A DNA stretch of 64,000 nt, from NCBI GenBank assembly GCA_049968255.1, contig JBMFRB010000005.1, positions 5,822 to 69,821 of the forward strand, in the 5' to 3' direction. The translations under genes and the position numbers were made by a program. Source of the DNA: Candidatus Sumerlaeaceae bacterium. GTDB lineage: Bacteria; Sumerlaeota; Sumerlaeia; Sumerlaeales; Sumerlaeaceae. The notes beneath the pieces were generated by a model. It was not told the origin of the DNA, ran no database searches, and saw nothing but the letters and a program-made list of their open reading frames with translations. Of the stretch, positions 1 to 39,901 are shown one piece after another; position 1 is the stretch's first letter; every line of letters begins with the position of its first letter.

Positions 1-762
1 GAGCTTTTCCTTCTGTCCGCATATGATGCAGCGTTGATGGGTGGTCACCGGCTCATTCAGCCACACGAGGCGGGTGTGCCACGTCATCAAACCGAGGATG
101 CCCGCGGGGGCACTCATCCCGGTAACCCAGGTAGGCTGACCTAACGAGCGGTCCTCCTTGTGGGCACTGGTCTCGATTTGTTGGGCGCCTCGCATAAGGC
201 GCTCCGCGAGAGCGTCGCCAGGTCGACCGGGGAACGCATAGATGGATGTTGGGCTTGGACTTGTGGTGTAACCCGATCCACCAACTAAAGAGAAGGTGCA
301 GAGGTTGAGGAGCCCTAGCACACAGCATGCGGGGCAAACACCGTAGTGGCCATCCCGAACGTGGAGGAAGTGCGCAATGTTGGTGCCTGTGGGGATTTCA
401 GGAAAGAGATAGCCGATGGCTTTGTCCTCTTTTTCTTTGGCTTCTTCGTCAAGTGGGCTTTGCAAAAAGCGAGAGCCGGTGCCAAAAAGCTCGAAATTCA
501 TGCAGTGATTTGGGAGCTCCCGAAGAATATGCGTGCGAAGAGACTCCCAATCCGAAACAGGTGTGGTCTGCGGCTTCAACCAAACGGTTACTATGGAAAG
601 CAAACGCAACACCGACAGGCGATGGGTCGGGTTTGAAGCTGCGATTTCTCGGATTTTCTCAGCCTCTTCAAAGACCTGAACAAGGGAAAGACGCCTGACG
701 TTGCCGTTGGCATAGAGCACATTGACCCACGGATCGTGAACAAGGTTGAACGAATACGTCAC
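1..762 (-). CDS. cas8e: Type I-E CRISPR Cascade large subunit Cas8e (CasA/Cse1), N-terminal ~254 aa, truncated by the window edge
   Basis: Absent from the ORF track because it is open at the window edge. Hand translation from GTG 762 (RBS GAGGAGG): MTYSFNLVHDPWVNVLYANGNVRRLSL...SVLRLL...FELFGTGSRFLQ...EIPTGTNIAHF...VCPACC...VGGSGY...MTWHTRLVWL...RCIICG. This matches Cse1 hallmarks: FNLxxxPW start, FxLxxxxxxFxQ, two CxxC Zn-ligand pairs, Gly loop and TWxxRxxxL. Confidence 0.9.
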   Translation of the reverse strand, partial: MTYSFNLVHDPWVNVLYANGNVRRLSLVQVFEEAEKIREIAASNPTHRLSVLRLLSIVTVWLKPQTTPVSDWESLRTHILRELPNHCMNFELFGTGSRFLQSPLDEEAKEKEDKAIGYLFPEIPTGTNIAHFLHVRDGHYGVCPACCVLGLLNLCTFSLVGGSGYTTSPSPTSIYAFPGRPGDALAERLMRGAQQIETSAHKEDRSLGQPTWVTGMSAPAGILGLMTWHTRLVWLNEPVTTHQRCIICGQKEKL

Positions 763-828
763 TGCTTCCTCCTCGGGCTTTAGGAATTCGGACGGCGTTG
801 CCGTTTTTTCATGTCCTTTTCACTGAGT

Positions 829-857
829 CCTATACACGCCCCCCCGAATGCTGTCAA
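829..857 (-). promoter_or_regulatory. sigma70-like promoter for the cas operon
   Basis: Minus strand reads TTGACA (857-852), 17-nt spacer, TATAGG (834-829), about 65 nt upstream of the cas8e GTG. Confidence 0.55.
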
Positions 858-972
858 TGTGGAGACCGCATTTTTCTGCACAACCCATGACCATCCTTGT
901 CACAGGGAGCCATGGGCTGCTGCGACTTCCTCCTTGACGGGGATGTTGGGGCCATGTGTGTTCAAGGGCGTT

Positions 973-1698
973 ATGAGTGAGAAGGAACGTGGGCGCTGGC
1001 GGCGGGTGCTGCTGAAGATTTCTGGCGAGGCGCTAAAAGGTGAGCAAGATTTTGGAATAGATTATCAATTTGTTCGCAACTTAGCGCGCGAGATTCACGA
1101 GACGATTGCCTGCTCGGGGGTGCAATTGGCGGTGGTCATTGGCGGGGGCAATTTTTTGCGCGGCGCCAATGAGACAGAAATTGACCGCGCGGTGGGCGAC
1201 TACATGGGGATGCTCGCGACGATGATCAACGCGATGGCCTTGCAAGCGGTGTTCGAGAAGGAAGGGATGGAGACGCGGGTGTTGAGTGCGTTGGAGATCA
1301 AGGAGGTGGCGGAAAGCTACATCCGCCGGCGAGCAATCCGACACTTGGAGAAGGGGCGTGTGGTGCTCTTCGCGTGCGGAACGGGCAACCCGTTCTTCAC
1401 GACCGATACGGCAGCGGCACTGCGCGGGGCTGAGATTGATGCGGAGGTTATTCTCAAGGCAACAAATGTGGACGGCGTGTACTCGGCCGACCCGCGACGC
1501 GACCCCACCGCCCAACGCTTTGCACGCATTAGTTTCACGGAGGCGCTGAACCGCAATTTGCGCGTCATGGATTCCACTGCAATTTCCTTGTGCCGCGAGA
1601 ACCGCTTGCCTATTGTCGTGTACAATTTGCATGTTCCTGGTAACACGAAACGCGTGATTCTTGGCGAAGAAATCGGAACTTTTGTCGGAGGAGATTGA
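973..1698 (+). CDS. pyrH: Uridylate kinase
   Basis: Motifs [47 protein letters not shown]. Start set at ATG 973. Confidence 0.97.
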
Positions 1699-4003: not shown

Positions 4004-4897
4004 ATGCTCATGAGGTCAAGAGAGTCTTTGCAGAGTGCGCCTGTTTCGGTGATCATTCCCGCACACAACGAAGCGCAGGCTATTGCACGCGTAGTGAGGG
4101 AGACCAAGGCGGCTTTGACGACTGAGCAGCGTCCGGCCGAAGCCGTCGAAATTCTCGTTGTGGATGACGGCTCGACAGATGGGACGGCTGCGCTGGCTGA
4201 ATCGGCAGGCGCATGCGTGTTACGCCATGAGGAGAACCGCGGCTACGGCGCTTCGCTCAAAGCGGGGATCAGAGCTGCCAGCCATGAAATCATTGTCACG
4301 ACAGATGCCGACGGGACCTATCCAACAGCGGCCATGCCTGAGCTGATCCAACTGCTTGAGGGTTGCGATATGGCTGTTGGCGCCCGCATAGGTAAGGATG
4401 TGCACATACCCATCGAACGGCGACCGGCAAAGTGGTTGCTTACGAAAATAGCTATCTATCTGGCGCAACGCCCGATTCCCGATCTCAATTCGGGCCTTCG
4501 TGCGTTCCGCCGGACAGACGTCATGGAGTTCCTGAAGTTGTGTCCCAGCGGTTTCAGCTTTTCGACCACGATCACACTCGCATTCTTGTGCAATGACAAG
4601 CAGGTTTGCTATCTTCCCATAGATTACCACCCGCGCACAGGCAAATCGAAGATCCGTCCGATCCGAGACACGAAGAACTTACTGGTGACCATCGTGCGCA
4701 GCATTATCTTCTTTAATCCCATGCGGGTGTTCGTGCCGCTGGCGACGGTGATGTTTATCATTGCGATCTTTGTGGCGTTGTTTATTCGCGATTCCCACGG
4801 CAACATTTTGGATGGAACAATATCCATCCTGGTGCTAGGCGGCATTCAAATGATCATGCTGGGATTTTTGGCAGACGCCATTGCGCGATGGCGATGA
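4004..4897 (+). CDS. GT2 glycosyltransferase (DPM synthase/polyprenol-phosphate GT-like) with two C-terminal TM helices
   Basis: Motifs VSVIIPAHNE, VVDDGSTDGT, NRGYGASLK, DADG, DLNSGLRAF. Start could be 4004 or 4010. Confidence 0.88.
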   Translation: MLMRSRESLQSAPVSVIIPAHNEAQAIARVVRETKAALTTEQRPAEAVEILVVDDGSTDGTAALAESAGACVLRHEENRGYGASLKAGIRAASHEIIVTTDADGTYPTAAMPELIQLLEGCDMAVGARIGKDVHIPIERRPAKWLLTKIAIYLAQRPIPDLNSGLRAFRRTDVMEFLKLCPSGFSFSTTITLAFLCNDKQVCYLPIDYHPRTGKSKIRPIRDTKNLLVTIVRSIIFFNPMRVFVPLATVMFIIAIFVALFIRDSHGNILDGTISILVLGGIQMIMLGFLADAIARWR

Positions 4898-4906
4898 GGG
4901 GCATCG

Positions 4907-5221
4907 ATGCGACGGTGGAATGATTATCCTGAAGACGACGAGGTGGTATACGAGGCACATGTTGATCCGGCTGATATTCATTACGTCTGCAGCACCACCG
5001 AAGCCTATGAAGGGCTTGCCGTAGTGAGAACAAAGGATGAGAAGCTGGGTATCGTGCAGTTCTGGGTGCCCACACGTTTGCAGCACGACTTTGACGAGTT
5101 TCTAGCACGGCTCGGCGAGGACATCTCGCTGGTCGTGAAACCTCCACGCCCTCACAGGCCGGAAGATTTTCTGGTCGGCCGAAATGTTACAATCACCGAC
5201 ACTGAAGAGACTGACAAATGA
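4907..5221 (+). CDS. Small conserved protein, DUF4911-like
   Basis: DIHYVCSTTEAYEGLAVVRTKD...GIVQF resembles the DUF4911 pattern. GAGGGG RBS; ATGA overlap with the next gene. Confidence 0.65.
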   Translation: MRRWNDYPEDDEVVYEAHVDPADIHYVCSTTEAYEGLAVVRTKDEKLGIVQFWVPTRLQHDFDEFLARLGEDISLVVKPPRPHRPEDFLVGRNVTITDTEETDK

Positions 5222-29123: not shown

Positions 29124-30425
29124 ATGACTTTTACACCGGAAAGCGTGTTCGAGCGCGGCATTGTAGGAGCTGGGGGAGCTGGCTTTCCCACGCACGTGAA
29201 AATGCGCGCGCAGGCGGAATGCTTCATCCTTAATGCAGCAGAATGCGAGCCGCTGTTGCACAAGGATAAAGAACTCCTCGCGCACCACAGTGACGTAGTC
29301 ATCGAGGGGATGAAACGTGCCCGCGGCATGATTGGTGCGCGGCGTTGTGTTATCGGAATCAAAGACAAATACGTTGAGGTCATCGCACAGCTTGAACGCG
29401 TCCTGCCGGAGGGATTCGAAATCGCACGCTTGCGCGACACCTATCCGGCGGGAGATGAGTTTCTGCTGGTCTACGATGTGACCAAACGCGTGATTCCGCC
29501 TGGTGGGCTGCCGCTGAATGTTGGCTGCGTCGTGAACAATGTGGAAACAATGTTCAATCTAGGAAGCGATGAGCCGGTCATTGACAAATTTCTTACTGTG
29601 ACAGGAGCGGTAAGGCAGCCTGTGACTTTGCGTGTGCCAATTGGGACACACATTCGCGACGTCATCGCCGCAGCGGGTGGTGCAGCCATTGAATCTTTTG
29701 CGGTGCTTCTCAATGGAGTGATGATGGGGCGGCTTTGCTCCGATCTCGATACCCCCGTGACGAAAACGACCGGAGGGGTGTACGTGCTGCCGCCGGGGCA
29801 TTTCCTCGTGCGCCGCTACAGTATGAGCACGCGAGAAATCAATCGCATTGGGCGATCCGCCTGCGATCAGTGTTCCTTTTGCACGGAGATGTGTCCGCGC
29901 TACCTTCTCGGCCATCCGATCGAGCCACATAAGGCCATGCGGGCACTTGGCTTCACTATGGACAAGGCGCCTCTCATCGTGGGAACGACGTACTGCTGCG
30001 AATGCAACATTTGCACAATGATCGCTTGCCCGGAAGATCTCGATCCGCGAAATGTGTGCGTTCAGGACAAAGCCGTTGTGAAGCAAATGGGACTCAAGTG
30101 GGAGAGCTATGGACGGGCGGTCGAGCCACATCCCATGTACGAAGCACGCCGCACACCCACAAAGCGGCTCATGGTCAAACTGGGGCTGAGTCAATTTGTC
30201 AATGAGGGTCCTTTGCAGACAAAGCTCCTTAGTGTGGCGAGGGTTCGCATTCCCCTGAAACAACATGTGGGTACTCAGGCTGAAGCTGTTGTGAGTGTCG
30301 GTGATCGCGTACGGCGGGGACAACTCATCGGCCGAATTCCGAACGATCAGCTTGGAGCTCCAATCCATGCTAGCATTGAGGGAACGGTGACAAAGGTCTC
30401 AGACTTTGTCGAAATCACGGCTTGA
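29124..30425 (+). CDS. PduS-like (RnfC-related) Fe-S flavoprotein, microcompartment-associated
   Basis: GIVGAGGAGFPTHVK, NAAECEP, YPAGDE, SLBB region, CDQCSFCTEMCP, CCECNICTMIACP, and a C-terminal barrel-sandwich domain (IPLKQHVG...IHASI.G) as in PduS. Confidence 0.88.
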   Translation: MTFTPESVFERGIVGAGGAGFPTHVKMRAQAECFILNAAECEPLLHKDKELLAHHSDVVIEGMKRARGMIGARRCVIGIKDKYVEVIAQLERVLPEGFEIARLRDTYPAGDEFLLVYDVTKRVIPPGGLPLNVGCVVNNVETMFNLGSDEPVIDKFLTVTGAVRQPVTLRVPIGTHIRDVIAAAGGAAIESFAVLLNGVMMGRLCSDLDTPVTKTTGGVYVLPPGHFLVRRYSMSTREINRIGRSACDQCSFCTEMCPRYLLGHPIEPHKAMRALGFTMDKAPLIVGTTYCCECNICTMIACPEDLDPRNVCVQDKAVVKQMGLKWESYGRAVEPHPMYEARRTPTKRLMVKLGLSQFVNEGPLQTKLLSVARVRIPLKQHVGTQAEAVVSVGDRVRRGQLIGRIPNDQLGAPIHASIEGTVTKVSDFVEITA

Positions 30426-30435
30426 GGCAGAGATC

Positions 30436-30990
30436 ATGACTGATGCAATTGGAATGGTGGAGTGCTCCTCGATCGCGATGGGCTTCGAGGTAGAGGACGC
30501 GATGCTCAAGGCTGCGGAGGTGCAGCTTCTCGTTGCGCGAACGATCTGCTCAGGGAAGTTCCTTGTCGCTGTGGGCGGGCGTGTAGCCGACGTGCAGAGC
30601 AGTGTGAAAGCAGGCGTTGCAGCTGCATCGGAGGGCATCATCGATCATATTGTCATTCCGAATATCCATCCGTCCGTGTTGCCAGCAATCACAGGCTCGG
30701 TGGAGCTCAAGCCGGAAGAGGCTCGTGCGCTGGGCATCATTGAGACCTTCAGCGCCGCCAGCGCTGTCGAAGCCGCGGACGCAGCAGTGAAGGCTGGGAG
30801 CGTGACGTTATTTCGCATTCACCTGGCTATGGCTTTGGGGGGCAAAGGATTTGTACTGGTTACGGGCGATGTGGCCGGCTGTCGGGCGGCAGTAGAAGCA
30901 GGCGCTGAGGTGGCCGCCGAGCATGGTCTTCTTGTGAACCGTGTTGTGATTCCAGGACCCAGGCGTGAGCTCTTCCGCGAATTTATCTGA
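30436..30990 (+). CDS. Tandem-domain BMC shell protein (BMC-T, PduT-like)
   Basis: Two BMC domains (AIGMVE..SIA.G; ALGIIET...AADAAVKA; LGGKG). RTICSGK carries the PduT-type pore Cys. Confidence 0.92.
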   Translation: MTDAIGMVECSSIAMGFEVEDAMLKAAEVQLLVARTICSGKFLVAVGGRVADVQSSVKAGVAAASEGIIDHIVIPNIHPSVLPAITGSVELKPEEARALGIIETFSAASAVEAADAAVKAGSVTLFRIHLAMALGGKGFVLVTGDVAGCRAAVEAGAEVAAEHGLLVNRVVIPGPRRELFREFI

Positions 30991-31037
30991 GAATAGGCGC
31001 GCCCCCAAATTGTGGCCTACTCGCGGAGACGCAAATC

Positions 31038-31382
31038 GTGAGCTCTGACGCTTCAAACCTGCCCCCAGACGAGTTTGCGGACGTTCGCACAGAACTTGTT
31101 CGTGCTTCCTTCGGCCTTGAAACCGTTCCCAGCGGGTGGGATACTCTACCTGAAATTCAACGCGAACGTTTTTTAGCCGTTCTCGCTGCACGCATCGAGC
31201 AAATGATCTCCGAGTCGTTCGAACAGCTCATGGCGATTCTCTATCGGCTGGATGTAGATGAGGAGAAGGTGAGAGTGGCATTTGGAGAAAACACTCGGCC
31301 TGCGATTGCTCGGGCTTTGGCGGAACTGGTTGTCGAGCGGCAGCTTCGTACCATCCGCACGCGCCGTCAGCGTTCACGCTAA
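31038..31382 (+). CDS. Hypothetical small helical protein
   Basis: GGAG RBS. The segment [15 protein letters not shown]...LAELVVER...R looks family-like. Confidence 0.6.
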
Positions 31383-31471
31383 GCTTGCTTGTGACCGTTC
31401 CAAGCTCGCATTGGCACCGAAAACCGATTATCCTTGAAGTGCTTGTTTTCGGCCGAATGTTGAGAATCACT

Positions 31472-32494
31472 ATGAAAACAATGACCCAAACCGTACAGGA
31501 AAAAATTATCACTTTGGCGTCGCAGAAGAAGCGGCGCGTGGTGCTGCCCGAGGCAGGCGGCGACAATCGAACCCTGCACGCCGCGGCTCTGGTGCAAAAA
31601 GAAGGCTTCGCGATCCCTGTCCTCGTGGGTAACCGCGACAAGATCGCAGCACTGGCAAAAGCCGAAGGGGTGGAAATTTCGGGGATCGAGCTGGTCGACC
31701 CTCAAGTCGATAAGGTTAAACTTGAGGAATTCGCTGCTCAGTACGCCGAAAAACGTAAAAAAGAGAATCTCACGCCCGAACAGGCGAATCAGGTGGTTTC
31801 GGATCCGCTCTACTATGCAGCGATGATGGTGGCGCGTGGAGAGGCAGACGGCATGACCGCCGGTGCCATCACGACCACAGGCGATGTGTTGCGCGCCTCG
31901 ATCAAATGCATTGGGCTACAACCAGGCATCAAGACCGTCTCTAGTCATTTCATCATGGTTGTTCCGGATTGTCCGCTCGGCGAGAACGGCGTGATGCTGT
32001 TTGCCGACTGTGCGGTGCTACCGGATCCAACACCCGAACAGCTTTGCGACATTGCGCTGGCTACGGCGGAAATGATGCAGAAGCTGCTGGGCTTTGAACC
32101 ACGCGTGGCGATGCTTAGCTTCTCGACCAAAGGCAGTGCCCAGCACCCGATGGTGGATAAAGTGCGCCAAGCCACCGAGCTCGTGAAGAAGGCCAAGCCT
32201 GATCTGCTCTGCGATGGCGAACTGCAGGCCGACGCTGCACTCATCGAGAGCATCGGCAAGCGCAAAGCTCCGGACTCGCCAATGGCGGGCCGCGCCAATG
32301 TGCTCATTTTCCCAGATCTCGATGCGGGAAATATCGCTTACAAGCTTGTGCAGCGTCTGGCCAAGGCCGACGCCATCGGGCCAGTGCTGCAGGGTCTTGC
32401 GAAATCGGTGAACGATCTGTCGCGCGGTTGCAGCATTCGCGACATCGTGGACGTTGTAGCCATCACCGCGGCCAAAGCCAATTTCTTAGGCTAA
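31472..32494 (+). CDS. pta: Phosphate acetyltransferase (short PTA_PTB / EutD type)
   Basis: [59 protein letters not shown]. Confidence 0.95.
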
Positions 32495-36133: not shown

Positions 36134-39100
36134 TCAGAAGTTCAAAATTTTTTCGGCACGAATGATCTTGGTACGCGCCTGTGGATCGATCATTTGCATC
36201 TGGACTTCGCCGCGCAACTTCTTGGCCTGGGCAATCTGATTGTAAGCAGTGTCAATAATGTCATAGGCGTCGCGTAGACTCACCTGATCGAGGATCAGGA
36301 GTTTCTGGAAATTCTCCGCCGCGACCAGAGCGTGCTTCACTGCGAGGATGACCTGCTCGTGCGTAGCTTCTTGCGATTTGGGTGGCTTGAGGTGGATAGT
36401 GCGTAGATAAATATCCCGAACAGCATCTTTGAAATCATTTGGGCTCATTTTGCCGGAGAGGCGCACAGCGCCAGCAAGGCCATTGGGCTGCTCGATGAGT
36501 TGCTTGATGAATGTCGGATCATGTGAGAGAACTACGTCGAATTTCTGGAAGCAATCGTCGAGCTGCGCCAGGAGTTCGCTGACTGCATCGAAATAGACCT
36601 GTTCTTGCAGGCGATTTTCAATTTGGTCCGTGAGTTCGATCGCTTTCTTCATATTCACATAGGACGACTGGTAATCGCCTTTTCGGAAATCGACAGCAGC
36701 GCGGTTCATGAGCGTTTTTACGTCGTCCACCTCTTGAGCCATATAGTTCTCGGCCCCGGCCTCGATTAACGCATTGAGCCGTGCCGTGTTTTCCTGCAAA
36801 TTCTGCTCGAGAACCAGCGGTGTGGTTTCAATCACGCGGGCGAGCCCAGCCTCAATGTCCTTGAGCCGCATCTCGACAGCGTCAAAGTTGCGCGTGCAGT
36901 ACTCATCGCGGGCTTGGGCGATCTCGGCAATGAGACTTTTCACCTCTTCCACGTTAAAGTAATTTGCCCCAGCGCGCAGAGCCTGGTTGAGAGCGCGATA
37001 AATGTTGTCGAGGCGCTCCTGGAATGTGTAATCGCGCGAGTGATCAAGCGCCATTTGAGCTAGCTTAACAGCTTCCTTCGCGAGTTCCTGTCCTTGCGCT
37101 GCGGTCTCCGCACTCCCTAGGAGCTCCTCTGCGACTGCTGCATTCTGTTCGGCCTCAACCAGGAGCGGATGTGCAGCTTTCCATCCCCCGTACTGCACGG
37201 ACAGGGCTGCAAGATCTTGTGCTTTGCGGACGTTGTAGAGACGCGCGTCGTCGGCAGCCGTGAGGGCTTGTTCGCTCACATCGCGCGCTTCGCGGTATTG
37301 CCCATTGGCCAAGAGTTTTTCGGCCTGTTCGTAAAGCGCAATGGCCTCAGTGAGCTGAGCCGGAGCAAACATGATGGCACCGGCTGCTTCAGCAAGGTTG
37401 ATGCGATCGGCCGCAGACTTCAGGTTAGCCTTGGCAGCGGCTCGTGCAGCATTAGTCTCGGCAGCCAAGAGGATACGTTGGGCTTCCTTGGCCGCCTCGA
37501 GTGATTTAAGGTAATCCTGGGTGATGAGGGCGTCCGACGACTCTTGCAGTTTGCGACGTGCTTCAGCAATCGCGCCTGGCTGATATTTGCGGATATCGCG
37601 CAGCCTGCGCTCGTCTTGTAACATTTGCTCTAATGCCACGCGAATCCCCTCGGCCGAATCGTTTGCAGGGGCCATTGTTGGGCTCGAAGAATTGGCTGGA
37701 TTGGAATTCGCTGCCACGAAGGGATCGCCGCGGAGTGTACCTTCGGCTTTTGGCGCAGTGCCACTGCTCACAGGGACTGGGCGTGTTCCTACGGTGGCAC
37801 CGGTGGGGGCGCCTGTCTTGCCTGCGAGATTCGAATCTACGACAGGCGTGTCGGATTTCATTATCGTGCCTGCAGGCATCCGCTCATTGGATAGTGGTAA
37901 GCTGGGGCTTGAGTCCGGACCGGCCATGATGTTCTGCTGAGCTAACTGTGCGATGACAAATGGTTTGGGAAGTAATTCCGACGCCTCTTCGTGGGCGAAT
38001 TTGTCATTTCCCTCACCCCCGCCCGGAGAGTCATTTTTCACCGTCACAACGCTAGGAACGCGTGGGGCACTCCCTTCGATGCGCCGCAGCAACTCTTCGG
38101 TGCGTTTCTGTTCTTCATGCGCGCGCTCAGCCAACAGCTGCTTGACGTTTTCCAGATACGCACGCGCTTTGGCGGTCAATTCCGCAGCCTGGCGATTCTT
38201 GTCCTGGCTGAGCAACTGCTGTGTTTCTTCGACGAGCTGTTGAACCTGACTGAGTCCCTGCGCGGCATATTCGCGCGCCCCTTTGCGTTCAAGGTCGCTC
38301 AGCTCATCCTGAACAGCGATCAGCGCGTGCTCTGCGACGATTCTGAAGGTGCGACTGACGACCTGATCAGAAATTTGCTTAGCTTCCTGGGCCAACTCAA
38401 CGGCTCGTTTGAATCGGCGCTCTGACCGGGCGCTTTTCGCATCGCGCACCTTCAAGGCGGCAGCGTCGCGTTGTGAAGCCAGGTTCTCCGCTTCCGTTTG
38501 GCGACGAACTTCAAGACGCTGGTCCACCACTGCCGACTTTGGTTGTGCCTGGAAGAATGAGTCCATTTTATCGAGCGTGCGCGAGCAGGTTTCCCAAGCT
38601 TGTTGTGCATCGAGGATGTGTTTTTCCGCGAGCTGATCAAAAGCGGCCACGATGCGATCATTCTCAATCAAGCCCTGGCTGGCCTTTTCTTTGGCTGTGT
38701 CGAAATCGTTATTGTTGAAGAGGTCACGCGCTTCCTTCAGGAGCTGCTCCATGACCTCGACGCGCCCCGGAAGGTACGTGTCCACCGCTTCATCGCGGAG
38801 AGTTTTGATGGCTTTCTCGACGGAAGCAATTTTGTCCTTTGTGGCCTCGATACGGGTGACGGTAACGAGATCTTCGATTTGCGGTTTGAGCTGCGGGATG
38901 GTGTTGAGCACCGTGTCGAACTGATTGTTGACATAGTTGACCATCAAGCTCTGAAAGGATGTTTCGGCCGCTTGCAGACGATCGGGTGCGTAGATAATAG
39001 CTTCGTCAGCGCGCGCCTCGGCAATTTTTGATTCAAGGTAGCGGAGTTCTGCCTGTGCCTTGGTTTTCTTTGTCTCGATGATGCCGTTTTCCGCATCAGT

Positions 39101-39844
39101 GATTGCTTGGCCACAAAGGATAATCGCCTGTTTGTAGTCGCGGTCTTTTTCAATTTTCTTGGTGATGTTGTCGATGTTTTCGCGGGTGCGCACGATAGCT
39201 TGCGGTTGATATTTTTCCGCTTCGGCCAATTCGAGCTCCTTGAGTTTACCCTTCAGCTCATCGAGCTTGTTGATCGCGGCGTTCTTCAAATGGGCCAGGA
39301 GTTGGTCCACTGCGACAAGTGTCTCGCGCGAAGCTTTGATAGAGTCTTCGTATTTTTGTTTTTGATATTTTTCACTTGCCGTCTGGAGGCTAGTTTCGGC
39401 CTTTTTGAATAGGTCGGGGTTTTCCTTGTCACCATCGTTGATGCGGGCAACTTCAACGGCTCGGCGCGCTTCTTGGAGAACTTGATCAGCATAGCGCGTG
39501 CGCGCATTATCGATGGCTTGCTTTGACTGGCGCACAGCTTCTTGTGCGGAGGAAAGCGCCTGAGAAAAACTCTGCCCAGTAAGGGCCTGCTGAGCTGCTT
39601 TTATGGCATTTTCGGCGGCTTCCAGAGCCCCTTTGCTCTCGTCGAATTTGTCAGCATTCCATTCGCGCGCTTGCTGCACATTGGCCGTTGCTTTCTTGAG
39701 GGAAAGCTCAGCGCGCTGTTTACTACAACCCGTTATTCCTAAAACCATTAGGATTGCGACACACCAGAGGGCCGCTTTTCGCCACCTAACGAATCCTTTC
39801 GTCACGTTGCCCGTCCTCATTTGTTTCATCACGTCAGACCTCAT
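36134..39844 (-). CDS. Giant lipoprotein built of ~70-75 aa helical (DUF4398-like) repeats
   Basis: Lipobox ITG|C. Recurrent turn motif (ADKFD, AEKYQP, AIIYAP, VDTYLP, GAREYAA, GAIMFAP, GAENYMA). Central Pro/Ser/Thr-rich linker. Start uncertain (39820-39871). Confidence 0.75.
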   Translation of the reverse strand: MRSDVMKQMRTGNVTKGFVRWRKAALWCVAILMVLGITGCSKQRAELSLKKATANVQQAREWNADKFDESKGALEAAENAIKAAQQALTGQSFSQALSSAQEAVRQSKQAIDNARTRYADQVLQEARRAVEVARINDGDKENPDLFKKAETSLQTASEKYQKQKYEDSIKASRETLVAVDQLLAHLKNAAINKLDELKGKLKELELAEAEKYQPQAIVRTRENIDNITKKIEKDRDYKQAIILCGQAITDAENGIIETKKTKAQAELRYLESKIAEARADEAIIYAPDRLQAAETSFQSLMVNYVNNQFDTVLNTIPQLKPQIEDLVTVTRIEATKDKIASVEKAIKTLRDEAVDTYLPGRVEVMEQLLKEARDLFNNNDFDTAKEKASQGLIENDRIVAAFDQLAEKHILDAQQAWETCSRTLDKMDSFFQAQPKSAVVDQRLEVRRQTEAENLASQRDAAALKVRDAKSARSERRFKRAVELAQEAKQISDQVVSRTFRIVAEHALIAVQDELSDLERKGAREYAAQGLSQVQQLVEETQQLLSQDKNRQAAELTAKARAYLENVKQLLAERAHEEQKRTEELLRRIEGSAPRVPSVVTVKNDSPGGGEGNDKFAHEEASELLPKPFVIAQLAQQNIMAGPDSSPSLPLSNERMPAGTIMKSDTPVVDSNLAGKTGAPTGATVGTRPVPVSSGTAPKAEGTLRGDPFVAANSNPANSSSPTMAPANDSAEGIRVALEQMLQDERRLRDIRKYQPGAIAEARRKLQESSDALITQDYLKSLEAAKEAQRILLAAETNAARAAAKANLKSAADRINLAEAAGAIMFAPAQLTEAIALYEQAEKLLANGQYREARDVSEQALTAADDARLYNVRKAQDLAALSVQYGGWKAAHPLLVEAEQNAAVAEELLGSAETAAQGQELAKEAVKLAQMALDHSRDYTFQERLDNIYRALNQALRAGANYFNVEEVKSLIAEIAQARDEYCTRNFDAVEMRLKDIEAGLARVIETTPLVLEQNLQENTARLNALIEAGAENYMAQEVDDVKTLMNRAAVDFRKGDYQSSYVNMKKAIELTDQIENRLQEQVYFDAVSELLAQLDDCFQKFDVVLSHDPTFIKQLIEQPNGLAGAVRLSGKMSPNDFKDAVRDIYLRTIHLKPPKSQEATHEQVILAVKHALVAAENFQKLLILDQVSLRDAYDIIDTAYNQIAQAKKLRGEVQMQMIDPQARTKIIRAEKILNF

Positions 39845-39901
39845 TGAACATCCCTTGGTTAGGGAGGTCAAGTCCTGACTCGCCTCCCGCTCTTTTATTG
39901 C

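Follow-up and report, generated by a model that had tools for sequence, protein, structure and literature searches.

Does a type I-E CRISPR (short palindromic repeats, clustered and regularly interspaced) operon that begins with cas8e, with no cas3 upstream, carry another nuclease in its place? The question is raised by a 64,000-nucleotide (nt) stretch of DNA from Candidatus Sumerlaeaceae bacterium (assembly GCA_049968255.1, contig JBMFRB010000005.1, positions 5,822 to 69,821; the window), in which an earlier reading of the letters alone (the sequence-only reading) had pointed to a hidden minus-strand open reading frame (ORF) with Cas8e/Cse1 motifs at the left edge. That reading had placed the rest of the locus left of the window and had suggested a Cas3-independent or rearranged type I-E system, for example a Cas5-HNH Cascade (the CRISPR-associated antiviral defense complex). 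The ORF is real, the remaining genes lie where they were expected, cas5e is fused to an HNH nuclease domain, and the genome is without a cas3 match over cut-off. The locus is very probably a complete Cas3-less type I-E HNH Cascade operon, with the window ORF as the 5' part of its first gene.

The operon and its HNH nuclease

The contig (C5) holds 5,821 bases left of the window, and window coordinates are C5 coordinates minus 5821. On the minus strand, the operon runs in the order cas8e-cas11 (one gene), cas7e, cas5e-HNH, cas6e, cas1e and cas2e, followed by CRISPR repeat(s) (Table 1). Inspection of this side for subunit fusions and for cas1-cas2, as had been advised, found a Cas5-HNH fusion, a Cas8e-Cas11 fusion, cas1e and cas2e. 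Cas7e, Cas5e, Cas6e, Cas1e and Cas2e all score over their NCBIfam type I-E cut-offs (5/5), with Pfam and PADLOC in agreement. The genome has a single Cas1 match and a single Cse2 match, both within the CRISPR locus, and a profile search found no second Cse2 match anywhere in it.

The translation of the window ORF contains all seven motifs reported for it (FNLVHDPW, RFLQ, PTGTNIAHF, CPACC, GGSG, TWHTRLVWL and CIICG). Pfam PF09481 (Cse1), the family that had been named as the test of the Cas8e call, matches at E 2.5e-27 and 96.6 bits (cut-off 24.7; profile positions 1-235 of 450), and the PADLOC Cas8e profile matches at E 2.4e-31. The same residues are found, without a difference, at positions 2-254 of an intact protein of 646 amino acids (aa) from another assembly, P0001. 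A 100-N scaffold gap inside cas8e directly precedes the window start. Upstream of the GTG start, the letters GAGGAGG stand as reported, and the distance to the divergent pyrH start, estimated earlier at about 210 base pairs (bp), is exactly 210 bp (763-972). The gene is pyrH by TIGR02075 and frr follows it; this pair occupies the side on which a cas3 would lie upstream, in keeping with the claim that the operon starts with cas8e.

Table 1. Coordinates of the cas operon, its repeat and its 5' side, in window or C5 numbering as marked
Feature	Position	Strand	Remarks
cas8e (cse1), N-terminal part	window 762..1	-	254 codons; GTG start at 762-760; runs off left edge
100-N gap inside cas8e	C5 5722-5821	-	hides 42 codons, judged by P0001
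cas8e 3' part fused in frame to Cas11/Cse2	C5 4667-5721	-	350 codons; Cas11 at ~4694-5197
cas7e	C5 3405-4670	-	421 aa; PF09344, E 7.9e-85
cas5e-HNH	C5 2244-3401	-	385 aa; HNH residues 293-331 = C5 2409-2525
cas6e	C5 1381-2247	-	288 aa
cas1e	C5 432-1412	-	326 aa; family profiles
cas2e	C5 173-502	-	probable start at 451
Type I-E repeat, 28 nt, sense ATCGTCCCCACGCGCGTGGGGGTGAACC	C5 128-155	-	17 nt past cas2 stop
GAGGAGG, Shine-Dalgarno-like motif	window 774-768	-	5 nt before GTG; read from letters only
TTGACA-17 nt-TATAGG, promoter candidate	window 857-829 (TTGACA 857-852, TATAGG 834-829)	-	letters only
pyrH (uridine monophosphate kinase)	window 973-1698	+	TIGR02075, 307 bits vs cut-off 243.9; divergent, bounds operon 5' side

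The nuclease is found on Cas5e, whose ORF matches PF09704 over residues 5-231 (E 5.2e-40) and the HNH family PF01844 over residues 293-331 (23.1 bits, over cut-off). For every part of the effector, the best solved relative is the Cas5-HNH Cascade of Candidatus Cloacimonetes (entries 8yb6, 8yha and 8zlu): Cas5-HNH aligns with 8yb6_A over residues 3-379 (E 1.4e-98), Cas7 and Cas6 match the HNH Cascade structures at E 3.5e-75 and E 2.9e-33, respectively, the N-terminal part of Cas8e matches 8yb6_J (Cse1; E 9.1e-31), and the Cas11 domain matches 8yb6_K (E 2.7e-16). In the solved protein, H310, D324 and H333 are described as the catalytic HNH residues, and R275, D277 and Y278 of the linker as contacts to Cas11 (PMC11794572). 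The catalytic residues align with H305, D319 and H328 here (ungapped alignment to 8yb6_A), and the linker residues with R270, D272 and Y273. H305 and H328, together with the zinc cysteines C293, C296, C324 and C327, are invariant in an alignment of 25 Cas5-HNH sequences; on the Cas11 side of the interface, W46 and R49 are conserved, with P in the place of Q53.

Two further observations concern this protein. Residues 282-330 (C5 2412-2558) show a weak match to the IscB model NF040563 (E 5.5e-5, far below cut-off), a likeness that hints at the lineage from which the HNH domain may have been recruited. The gene call on record for Cas5-HNH (P0007) is 320 aa long and begins at an internal methionine of the 385-aa frame. 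The alignment with the solved homologue starts at residue 3 of that frame, and an N-terminal truncation of the deposited gene model is probable.

The first gene encodes both the large and the small subunit. A single open frame spans the C-terminal part of Cas8e and a Cse2 domain, the last ~170 residues matching Cse2 (PF09485, 27.4 bits, cut-off 24.6; PADLOC Cas11e, E 2.6e-7). Six proteins were found by searching with the whole frame. P0001 differs from this gene at 4 of 604 aligned residues, not counting the GTG start, which is read as V. Another four homologues are likewise fused and full-length, with 620-646 aa and 32-41% identity; the Cse2 Pfam match is present in 3 of the 5 fused proteins, of which only P0003, at 24.4 bits, approaches the cut-off of 24.6. 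An AlphaFold model of P0001 (69-row alignment; mean predicted local distance difference test score 77.5, with low confidence at residues 339-428) matches both Cas8e of the HNH Cascade (8zlu_C, E 6.2e-16) and Cas11 (8yb6_K, E 1.4e-8, template modelling score 0.87 when normalised to the target, root-mean-square deviation 2.1 A).

According to the structural report, the solved complex has only one Cas11, and the HNH domain sits in the place of the second (PMC11794572); because of this single Cas11, we infer that a 1:1 Cas8e-Cas11 fusion is stoichiometrically coherent. One sentence of PMC10910872 says that Cas8-Cas11 fusions occur "in some cases" among HNH Cascades, so that a fused cas8e-cas11 does not bar membership of that group. 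This sentence was the sole statement on the fusion found in the literature search, the Data S2 locus list of the same paper aside. The Cas8e-Cas11 fusion is a minority form that is mentioned in print, with no characterisation found in the literature searched. An ATG lies in frame at the point that corresponds to the beginning of free-standing Cas11; it is without a clear Shine-Dalgarno motif, the corresponding methionine is absent in two of the five fused homologues (P0004 and P0005), and production of free Cas11 from an internal start is not claimed.

The locus in relatives and in metagenomes

Among 60 relatives searched, a full-length Cas5-HNH is encoded by G002, a member of the same genus (68% identity), by G035 (55%) and by G023 (53%), and four others match the Cas5 part only. 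In G002 the layout is the same: frr and pyrH are followed, in the divergent direction, by the fused gene (P0003, 629 aa), cas7, cas5-HNH, cas6, cas1 and cas2; 17 nt past cas2, at least 3 copies of the identical 28-nt repeat, separated by 33-nt spacers (61-nt period), run to the end of the contig. Another G002 contig begins with four more repeats, followed by a last repeat with a degenerate 3' end, the trailer and the lon region. Since locus and layout are shared with G002, the HNH Cascade is taken to be inherited at this site within the genus. Between the two genomes, the fused large subunit has diverged far more than Cas5-HNH (46% vs 68% identity).

Of the 120 clusters listed by a protein search with Cas5-HNH, 119 have lengths of 361-411 aa, with 49-67% identity and 94-100% query coverage; the remaining one is the 320-aa call P0007 of this genome. 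In metagenomes of the Joint Genome Institute, 574 of 599 pattern matches encode a Cas5-HNH relative, and a search of a contig collection with the Cas5-HNH protein alone gave one locus, L002. Cas5-HNH is not very rare in environmental data.

Fusion of the subunits is less common. ORFs were taken from 82 loci (80 kept metagenome loci, L001 and L002) and scanned with in-house profiles, one for the N-terminal domain of Cas8e and one for Cas11. Both domains were found in 51 loci, on separate ORFs in 44 and on one ORF in 7. The full Cas11 domain is present in the fused gene of this locus and of L056 and L087; in L069, L074, L075 and L077 the fused ORFs are shorter and the Cas11 profile is matched only in part, L074 and L075 being duplicates. 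A tree of Cas5-HNH from 46 loci was built on the question of whether the fusion had arisen repeatedly (L056, L062, L065 and L076 were dropped, their Cas5 match being incomplete). All six fused rows fall within one clade of 15 rows that is internally unresolved, and none of the 31 rows of the other clade is fused; this locus stands on a long branch (1.49). In L072 and L073 the Cas5-HNH locus is rearranged, with cas11 upstream and cas8e downstream of cas5-HNH and an array of 61-nt period between them.

The array, Cas3 and the rival explanations

The reading of this locus as a complete HNH Cascade operon has several points against it. Against NCBIfam TIGR02547, Cas8e scores 39.8 and 37.3 bits, below the equivalog cut-off of 70.05, so the protein is a divergent Cas8e. 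The PF09485 match is borderline (fragment 27.4 bits, P0001 23.9, cut-off 24.6), cas8e is split by the 100-N gap in this assembly, with its intactness taken from the near-identical P0001, and D319 is the majority residue only among the 25 Cas5-HNH sequences, neither invariant nor 90% conserved. The promoter that had been assigned to the operon fared in two ways: the letters TTGACA-N17-TATAGG are exact, and a sigma-70 consensus scan of window 600-1100 found 0 sites, because TATAGG lacks T at position 6; they are thus unsupported as a promoter. No second repeat is present in C5 1-127, up to the contig end, and no CRISPR array is assembled in this genome, which has one full repeat past cas2. A distant cas3 could lie in the missing part of the genome, about 4% of the whole. 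Lastly, assembly of the complex, its cleavage chemistry and its activity are predicted solely from homology.

The array bears on the rival that survives best, namely that the locus is a decaying relic whose array has collapsed to a single repeat, leaving this strain with no CRISPR RNA (crRNA) and no immunity. Where the congener has repeat-spacer-repeat, C5 has one repeat and then 127 nt without a second; Tandem Repeats Finder returned 0 rows on C5 1-600; and the whole assembly, searched with up to 6 mismatches, holds one full-length repeat, the copy after cas2. No array with this repeat came out of a genome-wide k-mer scan, which showed only three unrelated tandem repeats and a mini-array of another repeat on contig C21. 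However, 7 of 7 coding regions have open frames, the catalytic residues are conserved, and a second, truncated copy of the repeat, with a degenerate 3' end, lies exactly at the end of contig C18. Between the flank at this 3' end of C18 and the trailer side of the G002 array beside lon, identity is 83% over 713 nt; by this synteny, C18 and C5 most likely flank an array that was left unassembled. One sequencing run points the same way: a 207-nt contig of run X1 is identical over C5 128-304 and then has 30 differing letters from the exact edge of the repeat, a divergence that is expected with variable spacers and that fits spacer variation at this point. Yosef et al. are said to have found in 2012 that one repeat is enough for the uptake of a new spacer in E. 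coli, which we also count against decay. On this evidence, a relic is improbable; the array of this strain may be complete or collapsed, or the site may hold an insertion.

Some details of these sequences may be recorded here. C5 1-127 (window -5820 to -5694) contains two palindromes, one of them ATCCAGCA-ATA-TGCTGGAT. It has no match elsewhere in the assembly, and because its matches to G002 are at chance level only (best E 0.64), it is not the trailer of the G002 array; its length of 127 nt may be a trace of the assembler's k-mer. Of run X1 (share 0.12) 4 small pieces map to the locus, and of X2 (share none) 0, numbers that are uninformative on expression; X1 is labelled "hot springs metagenome", at most a weak hint at habitat. 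The C21 mini-array (~4436-4740) has another repeat (CCCCCTTCCGCTCGCGCGTGGGGAGCCC) in 3 copies and 1 degenerate copy with a period of 62, shows the same spacer on both sides of a 100-N gap, and adjoins a 1042-aa ORF of an SNF2-family helicase, with no cas genes alongside.

The position of the repeat is shared with other loci of this kind. Counted on 46 loci (L001, L002 and 44 of the metagenome loci L013-L092), the first repeat lies 7-23 nt past the cas2 stop in 35, often after ...CAGT, so any leader functions would overlap cas2, and transcription of the array together with the cas operon is possible.

The second rival is an ordinary type I-E system, with cas3 elsewhere or in the unassembled part and the HNH domain as an accessory. 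A normal cas3 with unfused subunits, proposed earlier as the mark of such a system, is not what is found: TIGR01587 (cas3_core) and PF18019 (Cas3_HD) each have 0 matches over cut-off in the 31 contigs of this 95.75%-complete genome, and two subunits carry fusions. Nor is any of the 43 window ORFs of at least 180 aa Cas3-like, these large ORFs being housekeeping genes. Four places with sub-threshold cas3 scores were considered and rejected (Mfd, a DEAD helicase with a Trans_reg_C domain, an SNF2 helicase and an HD+OB protein). The gaps of the 31-contig assembly leave some room for a cas3, and G023, a relative with Cas5-HNH, has a cas3_core match over cut-off on another contig. Flanking ORFs of the 82 loci were also tested (36 of at least 550 aa, from 87 of at least 450 aa; duplicates L073 and L079 omitted), and 1 of the 36 is Cas3-related. 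This 613-aa ORF (L083:785-2623, with a near-copy in L082) lies upstream of a Cas5-HNH operon and encodes a truncated Cas3 with the HD and part of the DEAD helicase domain; remnants of cas3 at such loci are mentioned in the text of PMC10910872, and the L083 ORF is of that sort. Against an ordinary system stand the rarity of such ORFs, the absence of cas3 over cut-off here and in G002 (93% complete), the pyrH-frr pair that fills the upstream side in both genomes of the genus, and a characterised homologue that, according to PMC10910872, cleaves DNA without Cas3. We regard this rival as very unlikely and retain the Cas3-less HNH Cascade.

That the Cas8e-Cas11 fusion is an artefact of assembly or sequencing (a lost stop or a frameshift) and the true genes are separate, as they are in 44 of the 51 informative Cas5-HNH loci, is scarcely credible even for a gene that carries a scaffold gap, for the junction lies in contiguous sequence ~500 nt from that gap and the same single frame recurs in P0001, which comes from an independent assembly, in P0003 of the congener and in three more distant homologues.

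By homology to the solved complex, Cas6e would cut the pre-crRNA at the repeat hairpin, and Cas5-HNH, Cas6e, about six copies of Cas7e and the large subunit would form Cascade on the crRNA, with the large subunit reading the protospacer adjacent motif (PAM). After formation of the R-loop, the HNH domain tethered to Cas5 would cut both strands a few bp past the PAM-distal end, with no Cas3 helicase-nuclease required. HNH would replace the second Cas11, and the single remaining Cas11, fused to the C-terminus of Cas8e, would give a four-protein effector with a fixed 1:1 ratio. Tentatively, we propose for the genus a four-protein HNH Cascade with a permanent 1:1 large-small subunit, leader functions inside cas2, and pre-crRNA read through from the operon, a possibility in which our doubts slightly exceed our confidence. 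If it is true, no self-contained type I-E interference unit of greater compactness would be known, the system would be a candidate precise editor of smaller size, and the 1:1 fused subunit would be a form without counterpart in solved or tested Cascades.

Elsewhere in the window, positions 29124-32491 (+) encode a Nuo51/RnfC-like iron-sulfur protein, a tandem bacterial microcompartment (BMC)-domain shell protein and an adjacent phosphotransacetylase, which looks like a fragment of a bacterial microcompartment locus. A 1245-aa ORF at 36137-39871 (-) has no Pfam match at E 1e-6, and neither do the next two ORFs.

Comparison with known systems

To our knowledge, no type I systems other than HNH Cascades cut both strands precisely in the absence of Cas3; HNH Cascades are under development as genome editors. 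The Cas5-HNH Cascade is of a kind already published and structurally solved (2023-2025). This locus adds a well-preserved member, which two species of a single genus carry at the same place in the chromosome. Its fused variant is a natural test of whether a single Cas11 suffices once HNH fills the second Cas11 site, and would lower the number of proteins to be delivered from five to four. For annotation, the lesson is that the Cas5 C-terminus should be inspected whenever a type I-E operon starts with cas8e and has no cas3.

The closest known system is the Cas5-HNH Cascade of Candidatus Cloacimonetes bacterium ADurb.Bin088 (Altae-Tran et al., 2023; PMC10910872), with structures 8YB6, 8YHA, 8ZLU and 9JXS (PMC11794572). 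Double-strand cleavage by HNH that is crRNA-guided and PAM-dependent has been shown only for this Cloacimonetes system (PMC10910872). The two share the gene set, HNH on the Cas5e C-terminus, a long Cas6e and the absence of cas3; the catalytic H/D/H, the zinc cysteines and the linker residues are conserved here; and both have a type I-E repeat, which in the congener G002 recurs every 61 nt. In contrast to the Cloacimonetes system, Cas11 here is the C-terminal domain of Cas8e, giving four effector genes rather than five, Cas8e has only ~27% identity in the structural alignment, and Cas11 Q53 is P.

The type I-F1 Cas8-HNH Cascade of Selenomonas sp. resembles this locus, as described in PMC10910872 and PMC11459484, in that a Cascade-borne HNH replaces Cas3 and makes a precise double-strand cut. 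There, HNH is inserted in Cas8f, whereas here it is carried on Cas5e of a type I-E system, and family searches of the locus proteins gave no I-F effector match.

With canonical type I-E systems (E. coli, Thermobifida fusca), the locus shares homologues of Cas8e, Cas11, Cas7e, Cas5e, Cas6e, Cas1e and Cas2e and a type I-E repeat. Unlike them, it has no Cas3, bears an HNH nuclease on Cas5, and has its large and small subunits fused. The E. coli I-E array is preceded by a longer leader, whereas the first repeat here follows cas2 after 17 nt with no such leader. A gene that carries both the large and the small subunit is also known from types I-B, I-C and I-D, whose cas8, as McBride et al. are said to have reported in 2020, also encodes Cas11 from an internal start, and an in-frame ATG stands at the Cas11 start here as well. 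In those systems, however, Cas11 is a separate protein present in several copies, whereas a true fusion is the simplest reading of the gene described here.

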